From contig MU004199.1 in NCBI GenBank assembly GCA_010093605.1, forward strand, positions 434,001-498,000: a DNA stretch of 64,000 nucleotides, in the 5' to 3' direction. A model generated the notes under the pieces. The model had not been told where the DNA came from. It saw nothing but the letters and a program-made list of their open reading frames with translations, and ran no database searches. Position numbers and translations under genes: made by a program. Below, piece by piece: positions 242 through 54,500 of the stretch. How positions within the stretch are numbered: position 1 is the first letter of the stretch; the number at the start of each line of letters is the position of its first letter. Origin of the DNA: Lophium mytilinum. Lineage: Eukaryota.

Positions 242-1959
242 AAAGGTTGTTTGATTGAAGCGCGTCTAGTTTTCCTGGTGGTGGGATGGGGGTGGTGTGG
301 AGGTTGTTTCTTGAAGAATACTTCTCAGGGAGCCCGTTACCTATGGACCTTTCATGATGATCGAGCACAAGGTGAATGAGCACCATTTTCCGTACGCTAT
401 TCCATCTCATATTACATCCCTCTCATTTAGGCGCTGTAGAACGAAGCATTCGTACCCTCTAATTTGAAAGATTTCAAGGGGCCCCTTACGGCGACGACTA
501 TAGAACAAATGAATAGATTAGAGTCTGTCGCTGGCGCTTCCATATTAGCTCTTCAATAATGATGAGACTGTAAATGAGTCGCAGTTTGAAAGCAACGCTT
601 GAGACGCGCTTAATCTATATCCGCTCTGCTCCGTTTAAAGCACCGTCCGGAGGCCGATGGCTCAGGATTTCCAAGTTTGTAAGAAGCAGCCCAGTGTCCG
701 CGAGGATTGCACAGTCCCCAGCGAGCCGTTGCAAGTGCTCATCGCTATCCTTATCCAACTGCATAGCGCTTCAACTCGAAAATGGGAGTGATTGTTCGTG
801 GCGAGAACCCGCAACCTCCTGACTTACCCCCCAGCTTCCCGGCAAGCGTATATAGGTTTGTTAACAAGGAGCGATTAGGGTTCGACGTGCCATGTTCGTA
901 TGTGATGTGTGAGTGCCCCAAGCAGTAGAAATCGAGTTACCTCCTGACTGACCGGCTTCCTACCTGCTGAGCTTCTCCAAACAGTGGCAACGAGCGTGCA
1001 AGAGTGGCGCTCAAGCGGTAGGATGTATATGTGTGTGAATCTTTCTTACTCCGGAGGTGCGAGTGCTACCGCCGCAGGTATAAGGCTTCCTAATTGAATG
1101 CAGTGACGACCGCGTGTTGAGCTCCGGGTGGAGGGCTCAGGGGGAGCAATAGGAGGTGGAGGTGGATTCTTAAATCACCGTTTGAGCCCGCGCAAACAGC
1201 CGCTATGGAACCGTCGTGTGTGGATCCGACAGATATGGTGTTCTTTTCGAAGGTCTCTGCCGCTTGGGCCGGGAATCAGGAAAGGAGAACGCAAGATGAT
1301 AGGGTCGAGCCTCCCTAGCAAGGTGACGGACGCTTGCAGTACAAATGCTGCTTAGCTATGCTCCAGGAGGTATATTTAGTAAAGATGCTGGTCAGAGTCT
1401 CAAATTGCAGCCGTGATGAGGCAAACTTGCATGACGTCGTGGTGGGCAACCCTGAGGGCCCGTGCACTTCACTGAACGATGCCACAGCAACAATAGCAGT
1501 CACGTATGTTTATCGGGCTTCAGCAATTTGGCTGTATCACTGGCAGCATATTTAAACTATCTGGAATGTCGTTGGCAAGCGCATTCAAGTCCACGTCCTG
1601 GAAGATCTCAATTCTACGCGAATGTCAGCCGCAGAGGTCCCCAGACCCCATTAAAAGACCTTATGTGCACGAACTTACATAGAACACCAAACAAAGCTTG
1701 AGAAGTGGTGAGCTGTCTATAGGCTTTAATGTGCACCAGTATTACTACAATAAAAGGGCTTTAGCATGTCGCGAAAGCCTGCAACAGCCAGAGGGTCGTC
1801 AATAGTAGCATAGGGCAACAATCACAATTGAGAGACTATTTTCTAGCGCGGTTTCGCTTATCGTTGCTCAACTTGGCCATGTTCAACAAGTCTCGTCTTC
1901 TCACGAGCACCTCGTCCTTCTAGCCTTTACAGCTACTTCTCATTACTCGCACAGCGATA

Positions 1960-2880
1960 ATGCCTTCGTTTCCCCCTTTTGCTGTGCTGGATGCTTGCGG
2001 TCATGAAGGTGTATGTGACTGCCTCGATTCCCTGGATTACGCCAACGAGACCCCCGTGGAGCGAAAGCAGAGGATGTGGATCCACCACGCTGGAAAAGCT
2101 CTTCAGAGCTGGTACGCGGCGTATGCCGAAAGGGTTTACAACTTCGAGATCGAGGTTGTCGAGGCAGCCGGCGAAGTGCTACACGTACATGGAATCGTAC
2201 AGCCAATCGGCACCGCCAAGGCTCTGCCGGCATGGTTCCCAGAGCAGGAGAGGTTGCGGGTGCTGATGTTCCAGCAATGTAACTTGTCACTGGGGATAAC
2301 GCGAGGGGTCGTACGGCTGTTTGAAGGTAAGTAGGAGAGGCTCATTGACTGCCATAATGCTAATTTGCGGTTCTCAGACTCCTACGACTCTCCCCTCACG
2401 CATGTCGGTATCCTCCGCGTCCAATCTCCCGAATTCGAACGGTACGTAGCCCTCCACCCCAGTTGTGGCATGGTAATTCAGAACAGTGACACCGACCACG
2501 TTTCCTGGATAATGGTGACAAAGGATGGCACGGAATACGTACAAGACATCACCGGTGCTCAAGTTGGACTTGAGGCCGTAACGTACCTCAGGGATGATTA
2601 CTTGAGCAGCAAGTGCGTTAGCGCTTGGAAAGCACGGGAATTTCCCGCCGATGCCGAGTGTGAGGCCTTAGTAGAAGCTGCCATCAAGGGGGACGAGCTT
2701 CAGCTCTTTCACGCACACGCTGGTCAACGATTTTTCGAAATTGTGAAGGCGTTCATGCACGAGGAGCAGGGGTTTCTGCACCTTGAAAATGGCGACTTCG
2801 AAGAAGCACTCGTCAAGTCCACCACTCGAGTCTGGGACGGCATGGGCCTGTACATGGCTAGCCTCCCGACTAACGTCTGA
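1960..2880 (+). CDS. Cys-His-Asp transglutaminase/papain-like fold protein, paralog 1 (~289 aa, 2 exons)
   Basis: ORFs 1960..2334 and 2365..2880 join via a phase-1 intron at 2327-2377 (GTAAGT...GCTAAT...CAG). Motifs: MFQQC, DHVSWIM, YVQDITGAQVG. The function is inferred from the motif pattern only. Confidence 0.75.
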
Positions 2881-3142
2881 CCAAAGCCTCCTCGCACCTA
2901 TGTCTGGTTCGTTGGGGACGTCTACGCTACACAGAGCTTCGCTCGTCATTGTGGAGAAGTTTGCAGCCGTCACCTGCTTATGGCCCTTTGACTGAGCGAT
3001 TCCTTTTGGTGCAGGTTAACCAATCCCTTTCCGTCATGGTTAGGGGGCCACTAACAGTGTATCCGGTACGGCGGCTCTACCTGTTGTGGTCCATAATAGT
3101 ATGAGCCTTGTGCTGGTCTATTAAGGGCTTCTTTCTACGGAA
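2810..3142. repeat. Copy A of an inverted dispersed duplication (partner at ~58774-59096)
   Basis: The reverse complement of 3142 leftwards (ttccgtagaaagaagcccttaatagaccagcacaa...) aligns to 58774 onwards. It is near-identical for ~90 bp, then identity decays. Confidence 0.9.
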
Positions 3143-4112: not shown

Positions 4113-4676
4113 TCACATAAAGGGCTCACAAAAGCTGTCAAAATCGTCCTGCGAGACACCCCTCCCCACCCAGTCTTCCGCCTTTTGATTGAAGATGCTA
4201 GTCTCGCATGTTGGGCACTGATTCTTCGCACAAACCACCCAGAAGCGCAGGCACGCCTCGTGGAAAACATGCTGGCACTTCAAGATCCTCACTGCGCTTT
4301 CGTCGCCTGGCTTGCGGATTGTCGGGCCCCAGCGCTCGCAGAGGCGGCACCATTCGCCCAGACCGGCTTTGACGCGTATGACGCCGTTGTCGAAGAATTC
4401 GATCGGGGTGTCGGATGATTCGGGGGCGGTGGGCTCCTCCAGGGTCAGGATTGTTGTGCAGAGTGGGCAATTCTTGTCGGTGGCGAGCCATTTCTTGAGG
4501 CAGTCAAGGTGGTAGATATGCTTGCAAAGGATAGTGAGGACCGCACCGCCGGCGTCCTTGGCTGCCTGCGCACCGGTGCGCTTGCATAGGCTGCAGGTGG
4601 GGCCGAGATCTTCCGAGCAGGCGCGCACTCCAGACTTGGGGGCTTCGGCGGGCGCGGTCACCGTAGTGTCAGCCAT
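4113..4676 (-). CDS. Small protein with two RING-H2 fingers (putative E3 ubiquitin ligase)
   Basis: Likely start MADTT at 4676. Two C3H2C3 motifs: CSLC...CKHIYHLDC...CPLC and CRLC...CQHVFHEAC...CPTC. Intronless. Confidence 0.8.
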   Translation of the reverse strand: MADTTVTAPAEAPKSGVRACSEDLGPTCSLCKRTGAQAAKDAGGAVLTILCKHIYHLDCLKKWLATDKNCPLCTTILTLEEPTAPESSDTPIEFFDNGVIRVKAGLGEWCRLCERWGPTIRKPGDESAVRILKCQHVFHEACLRFWVVCAKNQCPTCETSIFNQKAEDWVGRGVSQDDFDSFCEPFM

Positions 4677-5059
4677 CGTGAGTTGGTCGGGAGGGTCGAG
4701 GGTGGAGAGTGGTGCCGGTTGGAACGGGTGTTGTGACACGAGAGGAGAGGGTGGTTGGTGTTCGGAGAGTGGAAGGAAGAGTGGAGTAGAAGGTCCAAGT
4801 AGTGGATTGTGAAGTAACTGTTGTATCTGGAGGGGGTGGGACGGAGTGAAGTGGTAAGGCCTGCGGTTGAAGATATGGGAAAACATCAACGCACAATGTA
4901 CCGGCGGCCGTTCGATTCGCAAATCGGCTTATCGATGACGGTAGTATACAACATAAAGTCCCGCGACATAAGTTTGGGCACTCTTATACCGCTGCGTGGG
5001 GTGTACCTATGGGCTTTCAATCTTTCAAGAGCGATGTCAAGGTCGATGCAGGGGAAAGT

Positions 5060-5700
5060 AGGCTGCCTTTTGACTGCCCATATACCTACTGACTGGGCTA
5101 ACCTCCACGGCGGTGTCTAGCAATCAGGTATAGTAGCCGGACAGTCCTATATTACGGCGCTCAGACTTGTGCCCAATACTGTACCTAGATGTGGGGGTAC
5201 CAATTCATACGTTTGGGCACTCTTTACCAATGCTAGAGGGACCGCGAACTGCTTTGGAAACTCTAAATACAAGGTAATAGTCCACCCAGTGGAAAACAAA
5301 CAAGCTTTTGATTATCTGATGCCATGTGGCCTAGGGCACCCCCTACAGTGGTGTTGAGAGAGCAAAAGTGAAGGTAGAGCCGTGGCGTATCCATGGGCCC
5401 GAATTATGACTTGAAATATAATGCAACGAGCAACGCAGTGGATATACTACAAGCTCTTGATTATTTAATTTCATGCGCCCCAGGGCAACCCTGACGGTGG
5501 TGTGAAGAAAGCAAAGGTGAAGCTAGAGCCGGGGTTTATATGCGTGCCTAAATCAATGAGTTGAAATGTAATACAAAGATCAGCCAACTGGAAATTAGGA
5601 TAGCTTTTGACCAACTAAAATTTCATTGCCTAGGACACTCCTCACGGTGGTTTCGAGAGTGCAGATGGTAACGGAGTAGCAGCAAGTTTGTGGCAGCGGT
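5060..5700 (+). repeat. Degenerate ~150-bp tandem array (3 regular units plus one displaced unit)
   Basis: Anchors tagggcacccctacagtggtg (5332), cagggcaaccctgacggtggtg (5481) and taggacactcctcacggtggtt (5631) give spacings of 149 and 150. A further copy lies at ~5066-5130. Confidence 0.8.
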
Positions 5701-6019: not shown

Positions 6020-7354
6020 TCACAAATTCTCGTCCTCCGCTTCTTCATCATCCTCCTCGTCAAAGAAGTAGAAGGGTTCCAGCTCTCGTAATTCATCGGC
6101 TATGCCCCCGAGAAGTTGGTGCTGAGGATTTTGCCTTGAGAAGCTTTGGTAGTGATTGTTGTAGTACTCATACTGGAAGACGGTGAAGCGGCGAGGCTGG
6201 CTGTGGGGGTCTGTGTACTCATGATGCACGGCATGGTCCCTGGATGCGGAGCCCTCATCTTCCCCTTCTTCATCATCCTCCCCCTCGGGGCCTATGTATT
6301 CATGATGCACAGTTTGACCATCATCGTCCCCTGATGCGGAGCCCTCGTCTTCAGAGGAAACCTCCACTTCTTCAAACCTGAACACCTCTTCCCGTTCTTC
6401 GCCTTCCAGTAGATACTCATCGTCTTCCCAAACAACCTCGCTCCCTAGCGTTTCGAAACGCTGGAGCCACTCAGCGTGGCCATGGGCTACTTCAACTTCG
6501 ATGCACTGTACCAAGGGAATGAAAGACAGCTTCAATGCGCACATCTGAAGCCCGAACCATGACGCAACGCAAACAATATACTTGATCCGGCGGAGCTCTT
6601 TCGCCCTAGCAGTCCGAGCCTTCCTAGCCCTACGAGTAGGACCCAGAAGATCGTTTATATGCTTATCTACCCTGTGTTCCATGTAGCGATGTAGCCATTC
6701 CCACGGGTATGACTCATACTGAAATTCTAGTAGCATGTCGCGCATCTTGCCAATGAGCGTACCAGCATCACAGTACTGGTTAGCCAAGATGGCCCGGCTG
6801 TCCGAAAAATCGGCGAACGCGAGGACGAGGTCGTAGATCTGCCCAGTGATCATCTCGATGAAGACCGGGATCTCTACTTGGAGGTAGGAGCCGATAGTGA
6901 TACCGGACAGTTCGAACAGGCTTCGGCTCTCGAAGGCCTCGCGGCGGGCGGTTATGGTGCTTTTCTTGGAATAGTAAACCCGACGGCACAGCGGGCAGGT
7001 TGTTTTACCTACGAAATGAGCTTTGGCGCACGCGATGTGGAAGGAGTGCTCGCAAGGGAGGGTAATCGGATAGCCGCCCATGATGTGGGTTGCGAAGGGG
7101 AGTTCGGGGAGGATTGCCGATTCTTCATCTTCTTCTTGCATGTTTAAGTCGTCCAGGCAGATCGCGCAGGTTGTGCCCGGAGATGCTTCTAGATTGGTCG
7201 CGGGTGGTAAGCCGTCCAAGGCCTCCAGCCATTCCTTGCGCGTCGGTAACGCAGGTGGAGTCAAGGACTGCTTGTCAATTCGGTGTAGTACGCCTTCAGA
7301 CATACCGTAGAGGCCACTGTGAACATAGTAGGTTCGGGAAGAGGTACCCTGCAT
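6020..7354 (-). CDS. RING-H2 protein, tandem paralog A (RING + unrecognised helical domain + acidic tail)
   Basis: Likely start MQGTSS at 7354. CAIC...CEHSFHIAC...CPLC, then the shared motifs ARREAFE, LSFIPL and DDEYLL, then a D/E-rich tail. Confidence 0.85.
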   Translation of the reverse strand: MQGTSSRTYYVHSGLYGMSEGVLHRIDKQSLTPPALPTRKEWLEALDGLPPATNLEASPGTTCAICLDDLNMQEEDEESAILPELPFATHIMGGYPITLPCEHSFHIACAKAHFVGKTTCPLCRRVYYSKKSTITARREAFESRSLFELSGITIGSYLQVEIPVFIEMITGQIYDLVLAFADFSDSRAILANQYCDAGTLIGKMRDMLLEFQYESYPWEWLHRYMEHRVDKHINDLLGPTRRARKARTARAKELRRIKYIVCVASWFGLQMCALKLSFIPLVQCIEVEVAHGHAEWLQRFETLGSEVVWEDDEYLLEGEEREEVFRFEEVEVSSEDEGSASGDDDGQTVHHEYIGPEGEDDEEGEDEGSASRDHAVHHEYTDPHSQPRRFTVFQYEYYNNHYQSFSRQNPQHQLLGGIADELRELEPFYFFDEEDDEEAEDENL

Positions 7355-8013
7355 GGTAGAGGTAAGTTGTGTGTCTGGAGTTTGTGGTCTGCTTGGTGTA
7401 GTGATTTCTGGAAAGTGAGTGTGTTTTCGGAGGAAATGATAGCTACGGTAGGACTCTTTATTCATCCTGGAGTGAATCAGAACTGTCAATTGTTGAATAA
7501 CAATGTATTCGGACAATAAGGCAACTCATATCCTTCCCCTTTAGCTTCCAAAGTTGCATTCTTCACTGAGTACAAAGTTTGCGTGTGTACAATGCCTGAT
7601 CTACATGCGAATTTCTTGGCTTAATGTTACCGAGATGCGTTTCTTTCCCACAACTACGCTTTCCGAACTGACTTGGTGGCTTTTTATCCGCGCTAGACCT
7701 GGAAATTGTCACAAGATGTGAAGTGAGAGAAGCGCGGAACGGGTAAGGGAGTTTTGATCACTCTTCTACTGGATTATTACACGGCGACAAGAAATAACAG
7801 GACTTACGATGCATTTTGGAGGGTTGTTTCTAGAGAATGGAACTTTGTTGAAGCTAAGAGAAAAAGGAAGGAATGAAGCAATCTAGTCTAATACTTATGA
7901 GAAAGTCAAAACGGTGGGACACACGATTGCAATTTAGTCTTCAGAGAAACATGTTAAGCGTGACCTGCTCGAGTATCCAGCGGCCACGGAAAATGGAGTT
8001 TTCGTCAGAGCTA

Positions 8014-9576
8014 TTAGTCTTCGAGGTCCATTTCATCCTCGAGATCAGTCTCATCATCGGTATCCATTTCATCTTCCACATCCGTTTTATCTTCGAGAGT
8101 TTCATCTTCGTGATTTTCATCTTCGTGATTTTCATCTGGAAAATGAACCTCGTCGAGATGAATGCCCGCTTGGGCCGCCCGGCTGCGAATCGTTTCAATT
8201 ACGCGCAATGCGTAAGCTTGTAGCTCCTGGCGATATTGTCCTGGGTTTGCAGCCGCCTGTTCAAGCAGTGCATGCCATTCCTGACGCAGTCTCCTGTATT
8301 CGGCCCTTTGCTCTTCGTCATCTCGCTCAAGGAGTACCTCGGTGGTGGGAAGATCTCCATCTTGCTCCATTCCGAGTGCGGTCAAAAGACGTCGCAGCTC
8401 ATTGCGCAGTCGCTCGAAAGCCGCCTCTTCGTACTGGCTCAAGGATCCCGGATTCATGTTCTGGCGATCCAGAAGCCCTCGGTATTGTTGGTACAGCACC
8501 TCATAGCGCCCCATCCACGTATAGCGATCTTCAATTTCGCCTTCGTCATCCTCAACCTCGTCGTCAATATCCATTAGGTCTTCGTCGTCCTCTGGCTCCA
8601 AGAGGTATTCATCGTCGAAGAGAACGGTTTCGGAGCCAAACGGTCCACCGCGATCGAAATGGGACGGCCACCCACACCCGCGTTCGAGTTGATATTCCTT
8701 GATCTTCAGATAAGGAATAAAAGTCTGCTTCAGCAGTGAGATCTTGACACCAAGCCACACCGCTTGCAGCACGATCCGTTCGACGTGTCGAATATCCTTC
8801 CTCCAAGGTGCCCATTCCGTCTTAACTCGCATGAACGGGGTTAGCCCCCGGTTGACATACTTTTGCACTACTTTGCACAAGCCGCGTGCGACCTCGCCCA
8901 TTGGTCGTCCCAGGCTGTACCGATAGTCATAGAGATGGTTGTTGATGACATGCATGATGTCAGAGATTCGATCATACTCATCAGGGTAGGTGACTAGGTT
9001 TACCCGCCCGTGGACTTCCGCCATGACTTGCACCATGTTGGAGATCTCGTGGACGATCAACGCCCGGAAACAGCGCATTGGTGCGTCATCAGGGATGGTA
9101 ATGGCGCGAATTTGCCGGAGGTTCATCCGCTCGAAGGCTTCGCGACGGGCTTGGATGGTGCCATTTCGAGCCTCCACTTCCCAGAACTCCTTCCTGCAAA
9201 GAGGACAGCATCCCTTAGAAACAAAGTGCGCTTTGATGCAGCCAATGTGGAACTTGTGGCTGCACGGGAGAGTCACTGGGTAGCCTCCTTCCATATTGGT
9301 GTTGTCTGCGAATGGGAGCTCGGCGAAGATTGTGGCTTCCGCTTGGACTTCGACTGCCGCCGTTTTGAGGTCCTCGAGGCAGACCATGCACGTCCTATCC
9401 TCGTCTGGAATCTCGTCTATGTTGACGATTGCAGGAAGCTCATCCAAGGTTTCTTGCCAGGCTTCTTGGGTTGGCAGACGCTTTAGGTCTGAAGGTTCGC
9501 TAGGAACTGCATCTCGTCTATACTTGTACAAGCCGCTGTAGGTGTAGCGCTCTCGCAACGGGATAGTTGGCACCAT
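8014..9576 (-). CDS. RING-H2 protein, tandem paralog B
   Basis: Likely start MVPTIP at 9576. CMVC...CSHKFHIGC...CPLC, then ARREAFE, LKQTFIP and DDEYLL, then an acidic/coiled-coil tail with DENHE repeats. Confidence 0.85.
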   Translation of the reverse strand: MVPTIPLRERYTYSGLYKYRRDAVPSEPSDLKRLPTQEAWQETLDELPAIVNIDEIPDEDRTCMVCLEDLKTAAVEVQAEATIFAELPFADNTNMEGGYPVTLPCSHKFHIGCIKAHFVSKGCCPLCRKEFWEVEARNGTIQARREAFERMNLRQIRAITIPDDAPMRCFRALIVHEISNMVQVMAEVHGRVNLVTYPDEYDRISDIMHVINNHLYDYRYSLGRPMGEVARGLCKVVQKYVNRGLTPFMRVKTEWAPWRKDIRHVERIVLQAVWLGVKISLLKQTFIPYLKIKEYQLERGCGWPSHFDRGGPFGSETVLFDDEYLLEPEDDEDLMDIDDEVEDDEGEIEDRYTWMGRYEVLYQQYRGLLDRQNMNPGSLSQYEEAAFERLRNELRRLLTALGMEQDGDLPTTEVLLERDDEEQRAEYRRLRQEWHALLEQAAANPGQYRQELQAYALRVIETIRSRAAQAGIHLDEVHFPDENHEDENHEDETLEDKTDVEDEMDTDDETDLEDEMDLED

Positions 9577-10204
9577 CGTTGGAAAGCCGACTTTGTGATG
9601 GGATTCCTGTATTCTGTTTGGTAAGTGCTTAGATGATAAGTGGTTTGGTTGGTTGTTGTGCGGGATGTTGATTTCGAGTCTTTCGAGCTGGACTTCAGCT
9701 CGTTTTATGTCCTCCATTTGCCTGAATTGTCACATCACTTTCCCGAATTTCGAAGTTGTACAGTCACTTTCACCTTAACTTTCTGGAATTACATGCATTT
9801 GCTCATTCATGGTGAATCAAGCGTGCAGCTTACATTGTTCATGGACAATTCACGAACCTGGACGGCTGCCCTGATTCTCCCATTTACGTATCATGACACG
9901 GGCGTTTGTACTGCAGAATGATTAGCTAGAGTAGACAGAACAAAGTTTTGAACTCCTCGTGGCCTATGTACGGAGCTCAAGATATGGAGACAATACATTC
10001 CTGTTGGGTTTCCCGGGCTGCCCTTACCTTGGCGGCTTCTCGGACAAAGGAATTAAGGGCGAGGCAAAGCTTGAACGAGTAAACATAATGGAACGGTTTT
10101 CAGTGCACGGGGATTGATGATTTTCGATTGGGGGGTAAGGGTTTCATTGCAGCTACAGCACTTACAAAAGAATGGATGCACGTTCATACGTGCTCACAGA
10201 GACT

Positions 10205-11173
10205 TCAGAGCAGATATTCCACGTCGTACATCACCGTGCTGCTGCCGATCGTCTCATTGTGTACCCATCCTTCTGGCCACGGATTGCCCATCATGATTTC
10301 GAATTCCCGAATCTCGAGCAATGGGATGAACGTCTGCTTCAAGAGGCAGACTTTAAGCCCCATCCAAGCTGCATCCAGGATAATAATTTGAAGGCGTCGG
10401 ATATCTTGTGCCCAGGCCGGTATCTTCCACCTGGGTTGGTCTGCAAGCTCGACCACATAGTCGTCGACGATTGCCGCGATTAGAGCGTACGCCTGGGTGT
10501 ATTTGCAGCCGAGCTGGTTGCCATGCTTGAAGAGTACCAAGTGGATTGTCTTGCAAAGATCCACTACGGGCATGTCATCGTTGTACATGAGGTCTGACCG
10601 GCCTTGTAGCTCTGCAAAAAGGTACATGAAGTGCCAGAGATGCATGGTGATCATTCCACAGAACGACCCAATCCATCCCGAGTCCTCGTGGTAGGCGTCA
10701 ATTGGTAGAACGCCGATCTCTTGAAGGTTGAGCTGCTCAAAGGCCTCTCGACGTGCCTCTAGGGTGCCCAGCTTGCGCTCATATAGGTAGTCTTTGCGGC
10801 ATAGTGGGCACGAGGTCTGGCTGCGAAAGTGTTCCTTAATGCAGTTAACGTGGAAGCTATGCTTGGTCTCGCAAGTTAGGCTTACCGGACGACCTCCCAT
10901 CTTGGGTTCCGCAAAAGGGAGTTCCGCGAGTAGTTCAAGGCCTTCTTCAGGCGGGCTTTCGTCTGTGTTCGCCAAATGTTCGAGGCAAATGACACAGATC
11001 CTATGCTGTGCAGGAATGTCCTCCGGGGCCACATCAGGGAAGTTATCCAAAGTCTGCAGCCAGTCATCTCGCGATGGAAGACGACCTGGAACTGCCTGCA
11101 CGGGTCTCAGAGTGGCGTCCATTGCCGTCAAGCCACCGAACATGTGGTAGTCTCGGAGGGTTGGCCTCGCCAT
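10205..11173 (-). CDS. RING-H2 protein, tandem paralog C (lacks the acidic tail)
   Basis: 322-aa ORF with CVIC...CETKHSFHVNC...CPLC, ARREAFE and LKQTFIP. It ends exactly at YDVEYLL*. Confidence 0.85.
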   Translation of the reverse strand: MARPTLRDYHMFGGLTAMDATLRPVQAVPGRLPSRDDWLQTLDNFPDVAPEDIPAQHRICVICLEHLANTDESPPEEGLELLAELPFAEPKMGGRPVSLTCETKHSFHVNCIKEHFRSQTSCPLCRKDYLYERKLGTLEARREAFEQLNLQEIGVLPIDAYHEDSGWIGSFCGMITMHLWHFMYLFAELQGRSDLMYNDDMPVVDLCKTIHLVLFKHGNQLGCKYTQAYALIAAIVDDYVVELADQPRWKIPAWAQDIRRLQIIILDAAWMGLKVCLLKQTFIPLLEIREFEIMMGNPWPEGWVHNETIGSSTVMYDVEYLL

Positions 11174-18963: not shown

Positions 18964-19179
18964 GTGGGTGGGTGGGTGAGGGGAGAGGGGTGTGGATGGG
19001 AGAGGAGAGCTTTGTATAATAGATAATGAGCCTAAATGGCAGCCGCTGTGGCGGCGGTTTTGACAACTGCATAGCACTGGCGTTGCCGCCCCTGGCCGGT
19101 GCGGGGGCGGTGTAGGTGGGGCTTGTATATAGCCTGGTTTGGGCCCCCCCAGGAGTGGGGGGAATAGGAATCATGCTTC

Positions 19180-20520: not shown

Positions 20521-21202
20521 TGCGATTCAGAGCGGTCACACATGAAGGTGTTGAGATCGTTGCGGAAGAGCTAACTCATTGCGTTGTATGGTATTATCTT
20601 TCTGGGTTCGGGCGTGCGTTGCTGATGTCTATAAGAGGTCAGCGGGTCAAACGTCTAGAAAAAGAGGCAGCTGAAAGATGCGATCTGTGCGGTCGCGGTC
20701 TGCCAATAAAAGGATATTAGCCGTTCCTGAATTCCTTATGGGGGTCCAGAATCATGGTGCTGGATTTCTACTTCGCTTCTAGATAAATGATGATAGGCCG
20801 GGGTAAGGCAGACGGTGGCACCTCGATAGCAAATAGATAGATCTGATCTATCCGTTTGAAGGCTGGTAGCAATGAGATGTAAATCATGAGTCCATTACTC
20901 CCACCGGAACCGTTAGCCTAGATCGGTAGTCCTGGATTATTACATCGCTTCCAGGTAAATAACGATAGGCCAGGACAAGTCAGACAGTCACACCCCAATA
21001 GCAAATAGACAAATCCACCCCCTCCGTTTGAACAGCACCAGAAACCCGATCTCCCCTCCATCTTCACCCTCGCCTCGCCACGCCACGCCGACCGCCACGC
21101 ACCCTCCAAACGCCCTCGCAAACGCCCACCCAACACCCCCCCGATCCCGCACCACCACCACCACCTCTCCAACCCACTACAAATACCCCAACAACCGCCA
21201 CA

Positions 21203-37978: not shown

Positions 37979-38089
37979 AATCGGTGTGCACGTCATCATG
38001 CATGCACTAGACCTGGGAACTCCTACCGCTATAGCGTCTTCACTCTGCTTTCTCATCGCTATACAACTTTATTTCCCTGATACTCGGCC

Positions 38090-43763: not shown

Positions 43764-44833
43764 GGTGGCGGGCTTGGTGGTGGTGTGGTGGGTATGCGCG
43801 GGTAGTGTTGATGGCGATGGTAGGGTGCTGAGTCTGTATGGGCGTTCGCTGAAGCGTCGTCAGGGTCTATGGCGTTTGGCTGGCGTGCGGTGGAGCTTGA
43901 GTTGAAGTTGAAGGGGGTATTGAGGTTGCTGATGTGGGGGAGCGGGCGGGAGCGGATGGGAGAAGCGACTATCTGGCTGGTGGGAGAGTCTGCTGGGTGG
44001 AAGAGTTGGGTTTAGGCGCGGTGGACGTTGGAACCTGCAAGAAGGGTGTAAAGGCCAGCGCTGTGAATGTCAAGTTGCACCTTGACCGAGCTGCCACGAA
44101 ATAGCGAGGTTACTCTTCGCTATGTTTTCGGTGGAGCGAGAGCCGCCTCATACCTCTTATCTATTCCCTTTCTCGCTACTCGGTACCGTTTACTACGCTC
44201 GCATGTATTCTTTCATTAGAAAGACTGTGCAATGCCGCCCAGTGGAGGACTGGTCCACGTGGGAGTGGTACAAGTCCCCAGAGACCTCGGAAAAATAGCC
44301 CGAACACACCTCCTATTTCATTATTAGGTAGGCTGGCTACACAAGGGACTCGAGCTGATTCTTAACGCAGGAATTGACACTTTCCTAGAGCTCTCACAAT
44401 TGCGTCATTGCTAATTGTTCTTGTGCCCTCTTCACTGGCGGTTCCTTAGCGAGAGGCCGTCCGTCGAGCCGTTGAGAATTTCGAGGAGTCCTTCTGTTAT
44501 TCTAAATCTTAACCCCAGGCAGGACTTTGAAGCCGGGTGGCAACTCTTCTATATTGAAGCTTTGCGTCTACAAATACTAAATCTATTTGACCCCGCTGCG
44601 AGGCACAAAAGGGCAACACTTGTATCGCCAGATGTCCCTAATTGTAGTTCTATCTCGAAATCTTCACCAGATGCTCAACAACCACCTTCACCATGCCTCA
44701 ACTTCACTATTCGTGACGTTTCTTCTGCTTTATATATCTCTCCGTAGCTATGATCGATAACTGACCAGCTTCCTCATTCCTCAGCGTTCATAGCGAAAGA
44801 TTCTTTACTGTCCATTTACTCATTCTCTACACA

Positions 44834-45661
44834 ATGGAAGACACCCCAGACAAGCGCGTGTTGTTGCGAGCATCCCGCGTAGTTCTTGCCTGGTTTTTGA
44901 TGATTTGCCAGAAGACTATGAACGTAGACGTTGAATTTGCCGTAGTGGACAGCGGTTTTGTCCATTCCTTCGGTCGCGAAGTCCCCCCCGGCGTTCGAAG
45001 ATTTGGAGTCCCCCTCGCCCTCGAACTGGACTGGAGATTGCACTTGGCGGTGATATGCGGCTGGAAATGCGACTTCGCGGTCTGCGTAATGGCTGGTGCG
45101 CTGATTTCGCTTCTCGGAGGTATGCAGTTATCCAAGACCATTGAAATCAAGCATAGCTAACGTTAGGTTTTAGGACACGTTCGGACCATCGAAGAGATCC
45201 ACGTCCGCCCAAACCCACGCTGGACGCCCCGCCAATGGTCCCAATTCGGCCTGAAAGACGGCTCGATCTACACCCACACGCTATTCCGCATCGAACTGCA
45301 TAACGGCGAGAAATGGGCCCTAGATCTGTCCGGTTTCCAGCACGGTTGGCGAGATGTCTTGACGCCGTGGGAGCACTTCTGTACCACCAGGATGAAGGAG
45401 GAGTGTTTCCGGCTGGCTAAGGTCGGAGACGAGCTCGCCGAGTGGACTGCCCTGGCCGCCGCATCTAAGCCGGATGCCTTCGGTGTTGAAGTAGACCGGA
45501 TTGTCCGTGAGGCCCTTCGAGCTTGTTTCGGCACCGACAACGACATCGCTAGAAACCGCGTATTTGATATGGCGCACGACGATGACTTTGATGACGTATT
45601 CAAATCGTGCCTCGAGACATTCGAGGATATTTTGGACCGCGAATTGCACCGGTGGTTTTAG
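44834..45661 (+). CDS. Cys-His-Asp transglutaminase/papain-like fold protein, paralog 2 (~257 aa, 2 exons)
   Basis: A phase-1 intron at 45120-45173 (GTATGC...GCTAAC...TAG) joins the two ORFs. Motifs GWKCDFAV, THTLFRIEL and EKWALDLSGFQHGW. Confidence 0.78.
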
Positions 45662-45799
45662 CTTCTTGATTGCGTAGAAAAGCAGTTGGGGTTGGTCAAA
45701 CGGCGTTGAAACGGAGGAGTTAGGTGTTGGACGAGGTGTTGATTTGGCGATTGTAGATGACAAGGTTCCGATTTGTAGTCCCCAAGAGTTGAAGGTTCA

Positions 45800-46550
45800 A
45801 TTGAAAAGTGTTGCTGTTGTTGTTTCCTCACATCTTGATGCCGTTTGACTGCCTTCAGTGACTCGTTAGCAATTGAACATGATGTTAGGTTCTCTAGAGT
45901 TCAGATCGGCTTCGGTGTTGTAACTGCTGTTTTCTCACATGTTGATGCCGTTTGGCTACCTTTAGTAGCGCATTAGTAATTGAAACATGATGTCAGATTT
46001 AATAGAGCTCAGATCGATTCAAAGGCTATTGCTGATGTTTTCATACGTCTTGACGCCGTTTGGCTGCCTTCAGTGGCTTATTAGCAATTGAAACACGATG
46101 TCAAGTTCTATGGAGCTCAAATCGGTTCAAGTGCTGTTGCTGATATTCTCTTATGTCTTGACGCTGTTTGACTGCCTTCATTAGCGTGGTAGCAATTTCG
46201 GCATGATGTTAAGTTTCAGAGAACTCAGATCGGGTCCACTGCTTTTGCTGCTGTCTTCTTACATCTCAACGCCGTTTGACTGCCTTTGGTAATGTCTTAG
46301 CAATCGAGACAAGATGCTAAGCTTTGTAGAGTTCAGATTAGGCCAAGTGCTAATGCTGTTGTTTTCTCCCCTCTTAACACCGTTTGATTGCCCTTGGTGA
46401 TGTGTAGGCATCGAGACATGAAGTCAAGTCTTGTAGAGCTCAGATCGACTTGGGTGCTGTTGCTAACATTTTCCTACATGTCGGCGCCGTTTGACCGCCT
46501 TCAGTGATGTCTTAGAAATCTAGGCAAGATGCAAAGTTCTTGAGAGTTTG
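45800..46550. repeat. Degenerate 108-bp tandem array, 7 units
   Basis: The anchor gccgtttg (or a 1-nt variant) occurs at 45840, 45947, 46055, 46163, 46271, 46379 and 46486 (spacings 107, 108, 108, 108, 108, 107). tagcaat and gagctcagatcg are also conserved. Confidence 0.92.
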
Positions 46551-46599
46551 AAACAGGGAGTCGAGTTTTGAAGTCTACTCCTAAACTACTTACCAACGC

Positions 46600-47270
46600 T
46601 TTGGTTCCAGGGCATGGGTATCTCTCCACTCGGCTCCACTTTTGCTAGTGCCACACCATTGTACGGGGGACCCTAGTTAGCAGGCACTCAACTAGCCAAC
46701 AGGTATTCTAGTTCCTAGGGTTTAGAATCGAGGCTCCCTTTTTATGCTTAAAATCTCAAGGTATGGGTATTTCTCTACCAGGCTCTCACTTTTGCTAGTA
46801 CGACACCACTGTACGGAGGACCCCAGCCAGCAGATAGTCCATCAGCCAAGAGGTGATCCAGTTGCCAGCGTATAGGCTTGAGGTTCATTCTTTATGCTTC
46901 GAGTGTCAAGGTGTAGGTATTAGTCTATCTTGCTCCCACTCTTGCTTGCACAACACCGCTGTACAGAGGACCCCAACCAGCAGGTGATCTAGCGGCCAAG
47001 AGGTACCTTAAACTGTACTGCATCAAGCTTGATGTTATCTATCTTGAAGTGTAATAGTCGCTACATCGATTTTGAGGGTTCCTTAACGTTTCAAGGTACC
47101 TCAAACGGCGGTATTACGCTAGAAAAGCAAAATACGGATTGGTCCAGCACTGGGCCGTTAGTCTAGGGAAAGAGATCTATCACTTCTTAGCTCCAGTCTT
47201 GCTCGCTCAATGCTACTGTGAGGAGGAGCCCAGCTAGTCGGTCGCCAGCCAGTCAGGAGGCAGTCGGATT
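46600..47270 (-). repeat. Degenerate ~150-bp tandem array (3 units plus a displaced unit), inverted relative of the 5060-5700 array
   Basis: Unit starts at 46612, 46761 and 46911 (spacings 149, 150). Core cacttttgct-N-caccactgtacggaggacccc. A fourth core lies at ~47190-47262. Confidence 0.85.
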
Positions 47271-47580
47271 TGTACTGTTCAGTTCTACGTCGCAGATAGC
47301 CACTAAGTTGGAACGTGGACAGACAAGCCGGTTGAACCTAGAGACGCGATGCGCGCAAACCAGACACCACGCGAAGTACGATTAGCTCGAATCTGGAAAC
47401 CCGACCCTACGCATCTGATCATACATGCGCTGTACGTCGCTTGAAAGGTCAGTGGCTGCTTAAATGTAATGCAGAGGCTATACGTACTTAGATGTGGCCC
47501 AGAAATTCCAGAATGCTAGAGCGTGAGGTTTCATCGAGAACCATACGTTTTTGTTATGAACTGCCGGGTTGAAAGACCCT

Positions 47581-48156
47581 TTATGTGATAGACCAATGAG
47601 CATTGAGCACCGGACTATACATCTCGCAGTGGTTGCCTATAGCCCATCGGGTACGAATTAGCGGGCGCTCAGTATGATTCCATGCACCCGCTACGATGCC
47701 TAGCCTGTCCGATTGGGGAGATATGATGACCCGAGACCGTGAATAGAATTGCGCGACGTGTTGCAGTACTGATTCGATGTTTGGACTGACGAAGTGTCCC
47801 CGGTCCCCTGGATGGTAGTAATCGGGTGCCGTGGTGTTCTTGCAGGCCAAGTCAGCTCTGCCGTATCGAACGCTGAACTCGCCCCTGGACAAATTGGCAT
47901 TGCCGGGCATTTTGTCAAGAGACTCGAACAGGGCAGTTCTCAAATCTCACCCGTGGCCGTTCCAAAGCCATTCCGATGCCTCGTGTTTGGCTGGTGGTCG
48001 GCAAACACCAACACGACAGATATCGGCGTCATCCGTTTCATCTGGAAGGAGCTCTAAGTCGACCAAGTTAGACGGATAGTAGTCATTAAGCCAAAGGTCT
48101 AAGGTGGCCCGGGAAATTATAATGCTTTTCAAAACCGTAGGTTTACAAGCTCCCAT
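47581..48156 (-). pseudogene. Possible decayed gene: two collinear ORFs split by one in-frame TGA
   Basis: ORFs 47947..48156 and 47581..47943 share a frame and are separated only by TGA GAT. No family was recognised. Confidence 0.25.
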
Positions 48157-48906
48157 GAAGGATTGAAGAAAGTCCAGGGGTGCTAAGCTATGTTATACGA
48201 GCCTAGCAGATTTTATATTCAGAGTACACCAAGCGGCAACATGAGATCCTCTGGTACAAGAGTGCCAGCTAGTCTACTTTAAGGCCAAACGCACGTGACT
48301 CGCCCAACGCAGAGATTTGGAATAGGAGCAAAGAGCGTCAAGTTCCAAGTAATATAGATCAGAGGTAGAGTAAACGGTGAGCTCGCAGTGACAAATAGCA
48401 GCGTCTTAGTGCACAACTCTCAAGCACCCAGTCACGTGGACTGGAATTGGACGACATCCGGGACCAGGAATACAGCATCGCGGCGTATAACATGTCACGC
48501 TTGCCGCCTTTTCCCATCTTTTCTACCTCCACTTCCCTTCTCATCTACTATATTAGAAGGAATTCACGTACTCTCTCTCTCCGTAAACCGCCTACCATCC
48601 GTTCGATCAAAATTATACAACGCGACTTTTGATGGAACAGATGGTCTCTGGTCCATCAACTGGGGTGTCGTCAAGTTTTCAAATGCCGGGAGGCACCGAT
48701 GACCTCCCATAGGTCGTCAGCTCACGAGGCAGAATGAGGCAAACACCAGCCTTGCGCCGCCGAGGTTGTCCTTAGAATGCACGTTGTGCGGGGTATTCTC
48801 TGGGCAGGCAGACTCGGAGCGATGAAGATGATAAAGAAGGCATACCCCGACACCAGCCCCTTCACACTAAAACACCATCACACAGCTCATCTCTTTTCCA
48901 TCCAGC

Positions 48907-51273
48907 ATGGCCGATCCGTTGTCCGCAATCGCAGGCGTTGTTGGTATCCTAGATGTGGCCGCTAGGACATCGTCGCAGGTTTGGAAGTTGATCGAGGCAT
49001 GGCGCAATGCCCCAACTCAAATACTAGATCTTTCGGAGGAGATTCACACATCGCGCCGAGTGAGCACACAGCTGCAGACGATGTGCGATGCCCTGAAGGG
49101 TGTTTCTGAATCCGACCCTTTCGTCGAGATCTTGGCGGCCCAAATCGACACCGCGAGAACGATATGCGTGAGCCTCGATGCTATCCTTCAATCAATCGGT
49201 AGCACTTCACCTGATACCCGTCGGCGCATTCGCAAAGAAAAGTGGCTCCAAGCAAAATCAAAAGTGGCTGATCTGCAGAGTCAGCTTGCGAGAGTTCGGT
49301 CTAACGTGATGCTGCTCCTGTGCATTCAATCAGCGTATGTCGCCCAAGTATTGCGATTGAATAATATATCGATCTAAAATGTTATCAGACTACGCGGAGT
49401 ACAGCTAGAAGTACTTCTTCGAACTCAACATGACGCCGTCATGAACCTACTTCGACCGAGGTCGCCTTCGACTCTGAACGCGACAGTTGCAACATCCACA
49501 ATTGCTACTTTCGAAAATAAAGAAGAATCACTTGAATTCGATTCCGCAAGTCCAGGATTGGAATCATTCCAACCCGGAACCCGTGTGATCAGCTTAGCAA
49601 CTCCGAGGCGCGTGGTTTGCAAAAGCTCATGCAAATGTACTTGCCATCTCCATCGTTCATATAATCGGTTTCATCTGGCTGGATTCAACAAACTTATCAG
49701 ATCGGTAAAAGTCGCCTATTCCACTCCAACTGATAACGCCTCTACGCACGAAGCGTCATGTCTCAGAGCGACGTTCGCCTCGTTCGAGATGTCCTACTCG
49801 TTCCCATCATGGCTTCTCAACATATCCATTCTGACAGTTGTGACCGTGTATCACGGAACTCCTACCTTCGGCCTCATTTTCCGGCGTCGAATACCATTAG
49901 ACAGTGCAACACTTGACCAGACTTTGTTCAGGCATGTTGCTAGAAGGGATTTCCTAGGAGCAAAAGCTATGCTTGCATTGCAGGGAGGGGGGGCGCAAGT
50001 ACACGACGTGAACTCATGTGATGGAGCTTCCGCTCTTCACCTTGCTATGCAACAGGGCAGTGTCGCTATGGTAAAACTCCTTCTAGCTGCTGGAGCTGAT
50101 CCACTTTTAGAGAACGATTACGGATGTACGCCGGTAAACAACGCAGCTAAATGGGTCTTTAATCAACACCATTTCCGAACCGTTGGCAAGGAATTCAAAA
50201 AGGTCCTGCCATGGTCCTAATATCTAGATGATCTGAATCTTCCGCATTTGCAAAAGGTCGTGCTTAAGCTGCGACCTATCGGCTTAAGCAATGAGCTAGC
50301 GAACGCAGTCTATCGCACCCAGATAAATGCTACGGATGATGCTGGACGCGGCCCTCTTCATTGGGCTGCATACCGAGGCGACGCTGATAATATTCGACTT
50401 CTTCTAGACTCCGGCGCGGACCCTAATCAAAGAAGCGTGAACGATGACGCTACTCCTTTGATGGAAGCTTGTTGGATAGGCTCTCTTCCTTGTGTTGAAG
50501 CTCTCCTAGAAAGGGGCGCAAAGATCCATAGCGGTGACTACGCACCAATTCATCTCGCATCGGAAAACGGTAGCATTCCTGTTGTTAGGTTATTGATCTC
50601 CGCGGGCGCGGATGTAAATGATTCCTGCAACACGTGGAGCTCCGGACCGCTAGCCTACGCAGTAAAGAGAGACCAGCATGAAATTGCGGAATTTCTCCTA
50701 TCACAAGGGGCAAATATTAATTGGAGGGATTGGGAGGGGGACACGGCACTCACCGAAGCCGATTCCCATGACGCAACACGCTGTATTAGCATGCTGCTTT
50801 CGAGAAACGCGGACTACACCTTCGTCGACGAATACGTTTTCACAATCCTTCACCAGGTAGCAAGTTGCGGGAGTGTGAGAGTGGCAAACCTGCTTGCTGA
50901 AGCAGAATTAAAAGGGCTTGATCCAAACGCGACCAATAAAAAGGGAAAAACGGCGCTTCAAGTCCTTGAATCCAGAGTTGGAGTGACGGGCGAACTTCTC
51001 GAGGCTTTCAAAAAGCTGATGGACAGTGTCTCGCGGAACAACCATACCCATCAAGAGAGCACAGAAGCATGCAACAACTATGTCGACGCTGCTGTTTCAC
51101 GAAGATGTCGTCCTCTTGCTCAACTGCTCGACGACCACACCCGATCCTTTGTCTCTGCCGTACGGAAACACAAAACACCTCTTCTTGTGGTCTTCTTGTT
51201 GCTAATCTCGCATCTGGCACGAACGATGCTTGAGGGTAAATTCTGGTCGCGCGCAAGCGCGTTCTCGAAGTAG
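48907..51273 (+). pseudogene. HeLo-like N-terminal domain + ankyrin-repeat protein with a single premature TAA
   Basis: N-terminus MADPLSAIAGVVGILDVA...WRNAP (fungal STAND/HeLo-like). Intron at 49335-49388, a CKSSCKCTCH motif, and ankyrin repeats (GASALHLA, GRGPLHWAA, TPLMEAC, APIHLAS). In-frame TAA at 50218-50220, after which the same frame continues to 51273. Confidence 0.85.
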
Positions 51274-52426
51274 TCCTAAACTCGTCTCCTGTATTAGGCC
51301 GTGGGCTTGGAAATAGGAATTCTTTCATGCTCAAATTATACTCTTGCTCTCTCGACAACACCATGAGGAAAAGCCTCCCAACAGCTAGCCAATCGGCCAA
51401 GAGGCAGCCCATCTCCCGATTAATCAGCTTTTGCATCGTGCTTCCGGTTTACAAGTTGTATAAGGCCACTCCAAGCAGACATAGATTGGTTCGCCCGGAC
51501 TTTTGGGGGAAAGCCTTGTAATTCGCATTAGAAGCAGAAGGCTCTTCGCATTCTGCGAGAGAGCTGCAATATTCTTCGATGGAAACGCGCATCAAATTCG
51601 ACATCAATTTCATTCTCGAATTCCTTCTTTCTGGAAAGTTTGGACATATCCTTTTCATCAGCCAGACAGAAGTATGTAGTAGGATATGGAAGGTTCTCAG
51701 CTCGCCATCTCATCGCTCGAGCGACTCCGTGGCGTCTAGCCTCTACTTCTATTTGTGAAGTTAGTACGAAACTACTAATCCCCCCGCGACACCGTCCGAG
51801 TCTGTTCGAAAACTGTCTATGGCGACCAAATGATAGCAGCTCGCACGAAGCCATCCCACTCGTTGGCAGCAGCTGACGCTTTGAAAAGCCTGTATCCTGG
51901 ACTACCCGAAATCTTTGGCGACGCGCAAAGTAGATGGCAGGACGCGAGAGTCCTTAACAACCCCTTCATTGAAGACTGAGTCTCCTACGCTTCCCTGGCC
52001 CCAATCCACACCAACTTGCTTAGCTGGCTCGCCGTCGTTTGAGAAGCCTTTCAACGCTCCTAGGAATCGGATAAACTCACTGGCACACCCTGGACGGTGC
52101 CAAAAGTACCAACGACAGTAACGGTACAGCTTTTAATTCTTGTTCATGGGTGGCTGCCAGTCTATTTCAACGCCGAACGCATGCGACCCGCCAAACTAAG
52201 AAATTTGAAAGGTATGAAGGAGCGGCAAGCTCTAAGAAATAAAACTCAGAGTTAGAGTACCAGAGGAGCTCATAGCAACCCAATTGATAGCAGCTCGCTA
52301 CGCAACACCCGATCATCCAAGAGTGCTTGAATGGACTAAGACCAGGACTAAGAATAAAGTTTCCCAGAGTATATCTGGTTGCGCGTCAGGGCTGGTCCTA
52401 CATGGGTTCCCAAAGGATTCGGAGGG

Positions 52427-53530
52427 TCAGCGAGGACTAACTGCAGCGCTCTTAGAGTGCTTTTTGGTCTCGTAATGTGTATCGGCGAGCAACTCGACTG
52501 GAGCTATCGGTGTGGCGGGAACTTCAATGGCATCTCTTTCTCCCAGAAGTTCAACGCGCGGTACAGCCCTACCGTCAAGCTCCGATTTACCCCATTCTTT
52601 ACCGGTTTGTCCAGTTGCTGAGTTCCTCGCTTTCTGTTTCTTTCTCCACGAGAAAAAGAGTCCGACGCAGACTAGTAAGATAATTAAGACTCCAATGGTT
52701 ATTCCAGTAATCGCGCCGACGTCGGACCTCGGCGTACTTTCTGACGTCTGACTCAGACTACTGGAGGTGCTTGCGGGAGTGCTACTTGTAGTGCTACTGG
52801 GAGCGCTAGTAGCAGTGCTGCTAGCAGTGCTACTCTGGCTACTGCTTTGGTTCAAGAAGGGATTGCTGTTCTCGCCGCCTACAGCCTCCAAGAGATTGAA
52901 GGTAGTACTCGCATGACCGTCAGGATTGTGTTGTTTGAGATTGGTACTTCTGTCTGTTTCATCGATACTATCTCCTTGAAGCGCGGCGAAGATCCAGCTG
53001 GTTTGCGAAATGCGACAGTTTCCACCTGTGGAGATCAGCGCTTAGGAACCATTTCGCAATTTCACTTCCAAACAGTGGCCAACTTACACTTGATGTTCGC
53101 CGTCCAGGAGTTAGACAACACTCCTGATCCCTCTAGTAGTGTTGCTTGGATGCTGCTATTGAAGCTAGGCTCGAAATATCCAATACTTGTGCGCGGCGAT
53201 AGAGTAAGATTCCCCTTGCCATCCGTATAAATGATGAACATGTTTGACTCTGCCATGCTATCGCCGGTCCCAAGTCCGATCCACGAGTAGCTATCATCAC
53301 TGCTAACTTGGAGATATATGTCGCCAAAGTCTAAGTTCAAAGAACTATCGGGAATGTTCCAGCTGTAGCAGACTGGCGGACTGAAAATACATTGTTTAGC
53401 TATTCTAGACGCTGCAAATATCCTGACGACTATATCATGATGCATTAGAGCTCTATTAATGATCTTATTTGGGATGGGTGGTGGATATTGTACCGAAAGA
53501 GATGAAGATTACGAGTTTCAGACTCATCAT
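52427..53530 (-). CDS. Membrane-anchored DOMON/CDH-type cytochrome domain protein
   Basis: Spliced signal peptide MMSLKLVIFISF|VVRIFAA. Motifs WIGLGTGDSMAES, LTLSPR, WIFA and LKQH (candidate Met/His heme ligands). Then an S/T-rich stalk, a single TM helix (VGAITGITIGVLIILLVCVGLFF) and a short cytosolic tail. Two introns. Confidence 0.82.
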
Positions 53531-54119
53531 GGACACGCCCAATTTCTAGTTCATCTCAATGTTAGGTGTCACGGGGCTGGTAATCCAACTCGTTGGGGGG
53601 TCCGCCTGCCTTTTGACAACAGTCGCTTGCTGCCAAGCTTTAGGCTCGAAACGACGAGATCCGCCATCGTGGTCTTATCTTGTTTCCACCGTACACAAGA
53701 CGGGATGTTTGGTTGGAACGGTTTGGGCGGCATAAGTCTGCATATCCTAGCGACGAATTAAAAGCAAGAAATAACAAGGCTGAGACACACGGCAGGATTC
53801 AGGCCTGATCAGAGTAGGGATCGCCAGCTCGGAACGACTCTAAGCGCCCTTGGCAGAGTGAAGCACTGCTATCCCGCGAAGCCACATGCACTGCGCCACC
53901 ACAGTAGGTCTGGGTGCCGACGAACACGATACCTCATTCATGGCCTGGGTCATTTCCTTCAGGATGCCGCATCACGTACGATAAACTGAAAGGATAGGCA
54001 CTTCTCAAATCCTAGGTGCTTAGGGAGCTAAAGCTTGTAGCCAAAAGCCAGTACTAAGACTTTCTATCTCGGTCAAATTTTTCTTAGTAATCGAGACCCA
54101 AATTAGAGAGTAGCCATAT

Positions 54120-54500
54120 GCCTTTTTCCACCGCCTCGACACTGTTTGACTTCCTTCAACATTATTTGAGTTACCTCAAACAACGGTACCTTGCAGCAGA
54201 GTAAAGTATACAAGACCTGATGCAGCACTACGCCATAACTGCACCCACAGATTCATCACACTACGCTTCATTCCTGCTTGGCCGACACCGCTGTGGGGAG
54301 TATTACAAGCATTAGGCGATTGGTCAAATAAAACGTCGTCTGATTTCTGCTGCATCTACGTATACGTTGTGTTGGTCCTAGGTTGCTAGATCCTGAGTTT
54401 GCGTAGATGGATATAGCACTATACTGCTATTCTTGCTCGCCCAACGCCACTGTAAGGAGTAGCCCAGATACCCGGCAGATAATCAGGCAAAAGGTAACAA
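54120..54500. repeat. Relict copies of the 108-bp and 150-bp repeat families
   Basis: cgacactgtttgacttccttca (~54137) matches the 108-bp unit. cttgctcgcccaacgccactgtaaggagtagcccag (~54432) and cctgcttggccgacaccgctgtggggag (~54273) match the 150-bp core. Confidence 0.65.

Follow-up and report, generated by a model that had tools for sequence, protein, structure and literature searches.

Background

Satellite-like repeats that travel on transposable elements (TEs) include the Helitron/Helentron-borne repeats of the Pacific oyster, the tandem-repeat miniature inverted-repeat transposable elements (MITEs) of bivalves and DINE-1 of Drosophila. A review covering animals and plants (PMC10048060) describes such dispersed repeats as arrays of fewer than 10 monomers accompanied by single monomers, often lying beside the arrays of other families. 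Here we analyse a short non-coding repeat family in a stretch of 64,000 nucleotides from Lophium mytilinum (assembly GCA_010093605.1, contig MU004199.1, positions 434,001 to 498,000 of the forward strand; hereafter the window, in which all positions are given), and propose that it is probably a lineage-restricted, satellite-like repeat carried by a TE and now decaying. Like the TE-borne satellite repeats, the family has a monomer of about 150 bp, occurs between genes in arrays of fewer than 10 units and as solitary monomers, adjoins unrelated short arrays, is non-coding, and shows low homogeneity between distant arrays. Unlike them, it is not seen here within a carrier that has defined ends, and its copies are far more diverged (45-78% identity). 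A literature search that was not aimed at this question found no description of the TE-borne satellite pattern in filamentous ascomycetes.

Three other described systems resemble the family in part. Small palindromic MITEs are known from fungi, among them Guest of Neurospora and mimp of Fusarium, and MITEs also occur in Zymoseptoria tritici. The present family shares with the fungal MITEs a length below 200 bp, the lack of coding sequence, multiple intergenic copies and a consensus with inverted symmetry; the right arm of its core consensus begins TA-CAGTGG, which we take to resemble the start of a Tc1/mariner end. In contrast to those elements, its inverted symmetry is of an imperfect, internal kind (pairing in 73% of cells), the CAGTGG ends point inwards, individual copies at the five loci examined show no consistent terminal inverted repeats and no visible target duplications, and there are 150-bp tandem arrays. 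Foldback elements have long inverted arms composed of tandem subrepeats, and two arrays of one subrepeat in inverted orientation are present here as well; however, these arms are 41 kb apart with ordinary genes between them, and each has only three units plus one. Finally, van der Burgt et al. (2012) reportedly described introner-like elements in Dothideomycetes. With these the family has in common the host class, a short multi-copy non-coding unit, and GT..G and AG at its most conserved positions, but it is intergenic, found in both orientations, tandem, strongly diverged and unspliced in RNA contigs.

The accessible parts of a TE survey that includes L. mytilinum put about 17.76% of the TEs of the related C. 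geophilum in the unclassified category and make no mention of MITEs (PMC12910237). Repeats of this fungal order have been little described, and published TE libraries might already contain the family.

Results

Identification of the repeat family

A preliminary description of this DNA, made from the sequence alone, had listed at least ten copies of a core of about 70 bp. All 11 copies given there are readable at their places and can be aligned with almost no gaps over 96 columns. An nhmmer profile built from these copies recovers every one of them (E 6e-20 to 1e-14) and adds a twelfth, at 51339-51408 on the minus strand (E 2.3e-6), while the next match in the window has an E-value of 0.33. The copies, named by their approximate start, are distributed as follows.

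930 to 1020, plus strand: single monomer core (c936); nhmmer E 2e-18; 74% identity to c47182 over 89 bp
5056 to 5145, plus strand: displaced fourth unit of the plus block (c5062); nhmmer E 2e-17; E 2e-10 with a profile of minus-strand copies only
5294 to 5685, plus strand: array of three monomers of about 150 bp, plus block; nhmmer E 3e-20 to 1e-15
46614 to 47010, minus strand: array of three monomers of about 150 bp, minus block; nhmmer E 5e-21 to 5e-19
47181 to 47270, minus strand: displaced fourth unit of the minus block (c47182); nhmmer E 1e-19
51328 to 51412, minus strand: single copy, new (c51339); nhmmer E 2e-6 with the 11-copy profile, E 1e-5 with a profile of plus-strand copies only
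54256 to 54345, minus strand: single copy (c54261); nhmmer E 6e-16
54417 to 54498, minus strand: single copy (c54417); nhmmer E 4e-19

To avoid circularity, profiles were also built from the copies of one strand only. The five plus-strand copies alone retrieve all seven minus-strand copies (E 4e-12 to 4e-5), and the seven minus-strand copies alone retrieve all five on the plus strand (E 1e-11 to 0.013). A comparison with shuffled controls, proposed together with the preliminary description, gives 50-70 bits for true copies against a best score of 16.2 bits in 20 composition-shuffled windows. Over 73 columns, the pairwise identity of the copies averages 56.5% (range 42-78%), compared with 25% +/- 5% and a maximum of 48% for random segments of the window. 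The core family is real, non-coding and dispersed.

Monomers, arrays and the relation between the two blocks

A monomer of about 150 bp, of which the core is the better-conserved half, is represented in the window by six solitary cores and two three-unit arrays. Among the solitary copies, weaker similarity continues into the flanks of the core, over about 20 bp on the upstream side and about 55 bp on the downstream side; since these copies are alike beyond the core, the basic unit is the monomer of about 150 bp. The ends of the copies have become undefinable through decay. The copy near 54273 that had been recorded as partial is indeed present (c54261), although the profile covers it over positions 1-90.

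The 150-bp period reported earlier for both blocks is borne out by the alignment. In the plus array, the cores lie at 5295-5384, 5448-5533 and 5593-5675, with a spacing of 149/150 bp; those of the minus array lie at 46626-46713, 46774-46863 and 46923-47010, with a spacing of 149/149 bp. Identities between cores are 70-76% in the plus array and 69-81% in the minus array, and the spacers of the complete pairs are 71% and 69% identical, respectively. Tandem Repeats Finder (TRF) detects the minus array (46614-47005, period 150, 2.6 copies, 75% matches) and misses the plus array.

To judge by their sequence, the two blocks are related as wholes. The inverted architecture that had been attributed to them in common persists as a collinear composite layout in inverted orientation, with the fourth unit on the outer side in both blocks; its offsets, which had been taken as shared, are similar but unequal (238 bp in the plus block and about 258 bp in the minus block). 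The spacers that separate the fourth unit from its array (171 and 190 bp) reach a global alignment score of 0 against -22 +/- 5.8 for shuffled sequence, a value that none of 500 shuffles attained, and they contain a small local match at an equal offset in both blocks. Units are closer to one another within one array than across arrays.

Symmetry of the core

Columns 11-36 and 53-77 of the consensus core form the arms of an imperfect internal palindrome. Across the copies, 73% of the cells pair; sliding the partners by 1-3 columns lowers this to 34-50%. Of 500 shuffles, 43 show as much pairing as observed, and covariation scores 0.231 versus a shuffled mean of 0.220; a palindrome without compensating changes is a property of the ancestral DNA. 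The palindrome is a DNA-level symmetry, like that of transposon ends. The earlier statement that terminal inverted repeats are absent is incomplete in view of this consensus, although none appear consistently in individual copies at the five loci examined.

Copies elsewhere in the genome and in RNA contigs

The region 44500-56000 of the window was compared, at 80% likeness, with DNA contigs (run X1) and RNA contigs (run X3). Two DNA runs contain the whole stretch and are possibly its source, and run X3 contains 63% of the sampled words. The RNA label of X3 is a guess. The run is treated as RNA from this organism on the grounds of exact matches and intron-like joints: in one contig, stretches of 54, 62 and 64 nt are skipped, with GT..AG or CT..AC at their ends. 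Both data sets consist of contigs, not reads, and show presence in RNA, not strand, ends or level.

Among the DNA contigs, 22 of the 25 matching pieces come from other loci, being less than 95% alike and clustered on the cores, and the same is true of the origin of eight of the 11 matching pieces among the RNA contigs. Matches from other loci end at 54431 (seven DNA and four RNA pieces) and at 54467 (three DNA and three RNA pieces), and the 37-bp centre of c54417 between these points, 54431-54467, is the part most widely common to other loci. Beyond both points, a consensus of the loose ends still resembles the flanks in the window, with an agreement of 0.59-0.79. At another genomic locus the units are 328 and 569 bp apart, which indicates that the 150-bp period belongs to the two blocks described here and not to the family.

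Copies of the family are present in RNA contigs of the locus itself. c51339 is contained, without a joint, in one of them (X3 record 8, piece 49389-53023, 0 differences), and X3 record 9 is an exact match to 54292-54475; the RNA contigs of the locus leave 44500-48339, including the minus array, uncovered. One RNA contig, 48557-54125, spans the plus-strand PigL_N and ankyrin genes together with a convergent minus-strand cytochrome/DOMON gene and has one GT..AG intron and two CT..AC introns. These introns of mixed strand suggest that transcripts of opposite strands overlap at their 3' ends around 51339-51408. A separate observation concerns a DNA piece from another locus (X1 record 3), which carries 46767-46833 (67 bp) with 0 differences, as against differences of 10-20% in other copies; either a copying or conversion event of very recent date or an effect of assembly may lie behind it.

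The family was also sought in metagenome contigs. A 29-letter degenerate pattern of the core found no locus in them, and a looser pattern of 26 letters found 69 loci, all of which score at most 16.8 bits against 50-70 for true copies; as these loci match only the part of the profile covered by the pattern, they are chance matches. The family appears to be restricted to this fungal lineage.

Discussion

Origin of the family

We favour, as the probable explanation, a lineage-restricted and satellite-like repeat that was carried by a TE and is now decaying. The preliminary description had offered three candidates, and of these the evidence favours internal repeats of a mobile element; indirect signs of a carrier are the composite layout of the blocks and the adjacent repeat families. 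We infer mobility, a carrier element and a reason for the conservation of the core. A non-autonomous mobile element with short internal tandem arrays, either MITE-like or Helitron-like, would have spread the family to many intergenic sites. The composite, made of a single unit, a spacer of 170-190 bp and three units at 150 bp, may have landed or been duplicated at two sites of the window in opposite orientation, and the copies would then have decayed to their present 45-78% identity. The palindrome and the sharply bounded centre of about 37 bp could represent sequence that mobility demanded of the active source elements, such as a recognition or terminal sequence, and such a requirement on the source elements would explain a centre that is common to old subfamilies while their flanks differ. 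The core would have been needed as long as source elements spread, and the inserted copies would have decayed evenly since. Present copies would be passive, some of them being transcribed only as untranslated or intergenic parts of neighbouring transcripts.

Divergence inside the arrays, where homology is set by the period and not by similarity, is consistent with such a history. In the two complete unit pairs, 105 of 134 positions match in the core (78%) and 116 of 166 in the spacer (70%; Fisher p 0.11), so that core and spacer are about equally diverged, as fits neutral decay after duplication. Indices of repeat-induced point mutation give a mixed picture, with a TpA/ApT of 1.61 for the minus array and 0.86 for the plus array and a substrate index of 1.10-1.43; the transition/transversion ratios in the same analysis are 2.3 and 1.25.

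Several observations weigh against a TE-borne origin. At the five loci examined, individual copies lack consistent terminal inverted repeats and visible target-site duplications, and Pfam reveals neither an autonomous partner nor a transposase remnant among 24 open reading frames (ORFs) of at least 150 amino acids in the window. The 82-83-bp spacers of the arrays are of equal length in the two blocks and unalignable (z -0.4 to 1.6), whereas the cores can be aligned. The number of mismatches is unevenly distributed over the columns of the core, with a variance of 4.37 against the 2.47 +/- 0.38 of a uniform-rate model (none of 2000 permutations was as high), and the columns kept among solitary copies tend to be those kept between the arrays (Spearman 0.32, p 0.0045). 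This unevenness and the unalignable spacers could equally mean present-day constraint on the core. Constraint, which the preliminary description had suggested, is only weakly indicated: conservation is column-specific across the family, while core and spacer have diverged about equally in the arrays (p 0.11). Position-specific conservation is real but weak, and a host function of the core seems to us quite improbable.

Alternative explanations

Transposition would not be needed if a local 150-bp minisatellite had been multiplied by ancient inverted or small duplications. The mirror-image arrangement of the blocks, the collinear fourth-unit spacers and a second inverted pair, 2924-3142/58774-58991, nested outside them speak for such a history. 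At least 22 contig pieces from elsewhere match the cores, however, which makes the family genome-wide and not local; moreover, no mirrored paralogy is seen among the genes that the blocks enclose or adjoin, and the single copies at 936, 51339 and 54261-54497 lack duplicated flanks. We regard an origin by local duplication as unlikely.

A host cis-element is an unlikely explanation too. Whatever the origin of the family, the core of about 37-70 bp would here be a protein-binding site under selection, with a boundary, regulatory or recombination role. The low identity of even the core between copies (42-78%) is difficult to reconcile with this, as are the absence of a significantly better kept core than spacer in the arrays (p 0.11), the lack of any fixed location or direction with respect to genes, and the failure to find the family outside the source genome in the metagenome contigs scanned. 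Its merits are the position-specific conservation (0 of 2000 permutations) together with the agreement of independent comparisons (Spearman 0.32, p 0.0045), the ends of other-locus matches at the same two places, 54431 and 54467, and the fact that the cores can be aligned across arrays but the equal-length spacers cannot. A more specific proposal, which we consider distinctly improbable, is that the centre of about 37 bp is a selected protein recognition site (a boundary or recombination signal, or a domesticated transposase site) that this fungal lineage still maintains at dozens of intergenic loci as the rest of the 150-bp monomer decays, in which case the blocks could mark the ends of a 41-kb mobile or invertible segment.

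Very little probability attaches to an introner-like element, that is, a mobile unit with splice signals of which intergenic copies are seen here. Three positions of the core are the most conserved: A52 and C48, present in all 12 copies, and C53, present in 11 of 12. On the opposite strand they correspond to G1, T2 and G5 of a splice donor (GTnnGG), which is followed 42 nt further on by a conserved AG (T13 in 12 of 12 copies, C12 in 11 of 12). The pattern is intriguing because the host is a Dothideomycete, the class in which, according to parts of one report, introner-like elements were described (PMC4457414). On the other hand, none of the 12 copies is inside an ORF of at least 150 amino acids, and RNA contigs pass through c51339 and the putative donor of c54417 unspliced, although the same set of X3 contigs shows three ordinary introns of 54-64 nt. 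There is no CTRAY branch motif at a usable distance, the implied intron would be only 42 nt long, and such elements are not typically found in tandem arrays. Known introner-like elements are, in the same parts of that report, near-identical and within genes (PMC4457414), whereas the present copies are 42-78% identical and intergenic.

The array of processed non-coding or small RNAs proposed in the preliminary description fares no better, and a structured or processed RNA is already largely refuted and highly improbable. Several copies are present in RNA contigs, and the same hairpin appears in four or five of the 12 single folds, but none of the 12 copies folds more stably than its shuffles (z -1.43 to +1.16), the RNAalifold consensus contains 0 pairs, and the covariation check proposed earlier yields no excess (0.231 versus a shuffled mean of 0.220). 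Rfam has no match at gathering score in the 64 kb; in E-value mode, both blocks return chance-level matches only, the best having 20.4 bits where the gathering score is 60, and no tRNA is found in the window.

Phased nucleosome- or protein-binding sites, the remaining candidate of the preliminary description, were set aside because the periods differ: neighbouring arrays have 108 and 172 bp against the 150 bp of the present ones, and units at the other locus are 328 and 569 bp apart. The two arrays, moreover, contain no more than three units each.

Coding sequence was likewise rejected. In agreement with the preliminary description, which saw no ORF, none of the 12 copies lies in an ORF of at least 150 amino acids. 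Six translated pieces match no Pfam family at E-values up to 10, and a profile of nine translated pieces has a single marginal match (E 5e-4) among 1.84 billion proteins. As for a coding remnant, the best frame is open in six of the 12 cores, and the lag-3 autocorrelation of mismatches is 0.10, with no three-base periodicity.

Other tandem families in the window

Further short tandem repeats adjoin copies of the family, among them an array of 108-bp monomers and two weak fragments resembling it.

45806 to 46548, plus strand: array of seven 108-bp monomers, abutting the minus block; TRF period 108, 6.5 copies; nhmmer E 1e-31 to 8e-19
54124 to 54190, no strand assigned: 108-like fragment beside c54261, weak; 108-bp profile E 0.016 at 54124-54159, and alignment by eye
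47093 to 47126: 108-like fragment beside c47182, weak; 108-bp profile E 6.3 at 47126-47093

Units of the 108-bp array are 64-76% identical and rich in transitions (transition/transversion ratio 2.6). The similarity between this family and the core is weak and non-significant; their profiles overlap at 20025-20106 (E 4e-4 for the 108-bp profile and about 0.3-1 for the core) and again near 47093-47126, where both are weak.

Two other repeats were observed. A non-coding array of about eight 172-bp units occupies 19164-20553 on the plus strand, directly after the Lon protease gene; its units are 60-73% identical, TRF misses it, and a fragment of the same family at 4987-5044 (E 0.005) adjoins c5062. 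An inverted repeat pair of about 220 bp with 85% identity, 2924-3142 and 58774-58991, is far younger than the core family and lies outside both array blocks in nested mirror order. The core profile matches neither the 172-bp array nor the 220-bp pair at E-values up to 10.

Host and neighbouring genes

The best matches of the Lon protease are from Lophium mytilinum (98%) and Mytilinidion resinicola (94%), which places the window in a Dothideomycete of the order Mytilinidiales. The host is a wood-dwelling ascomycete, and the G+C content of the window is about 52% throughout. Domains found in its ORFs include HET, fungal transcription-factor, PigL_N and ankyrin domains, four RING-H2 and a mitochondrial Lon protease. 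The four RING-H2 ORFs are consecutive on the minus strand (4113-4922, 6020-7516, 8014-9717 and 10205-11173), and this row looks like a local expansion of a gene family. Between the blocks lie genes that include the mitochondrial Lon protease, a kinase and an MFS transporter.

The preliminary description had the repeats tracking RING and Cys-His-Asp genes, a view for which nothing in the window speaks: at the five loci, a single intergenic space of the RING cluster has copies and the other neighbours are unrelated. c936 is placed between a minus-strand ORF ending at 422 and an unknown plus-strand gene, 1924-2880. On either side of the plus array is a RING-H2 gene of the minus strand (4113-4922 and 6020-7516), two of the row of four. 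The plus-strand ankyrin gene (50248-51273) has its stop 66 bp before c51339, and c54417 lies about 110 bp past the stop of the gene for a secreted protein (54610-55776, minus strand). The neighbours further comprise an unknown small gene at 45167-45661, the PigL_N gene and a cytochrome/DOMON membrane protein. These genes are unrelated to one another, and copies sit upstream of genes, downstream of them and between convergent ones, in either orientation.

Significance

The gene-rich DNA of this host carries several short tandem families side by side. The present analysis defines one of them as a repeat family that can be annotated, with a usable profile, and repeat libraries of Mytilinidiales probably list it as unclassified. 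Should the core prove to be selected, it would qualify as a candidate cis-element; should a carrier element come to light, satellite-bearing transposons would be documented in filamentous ascomycetes.

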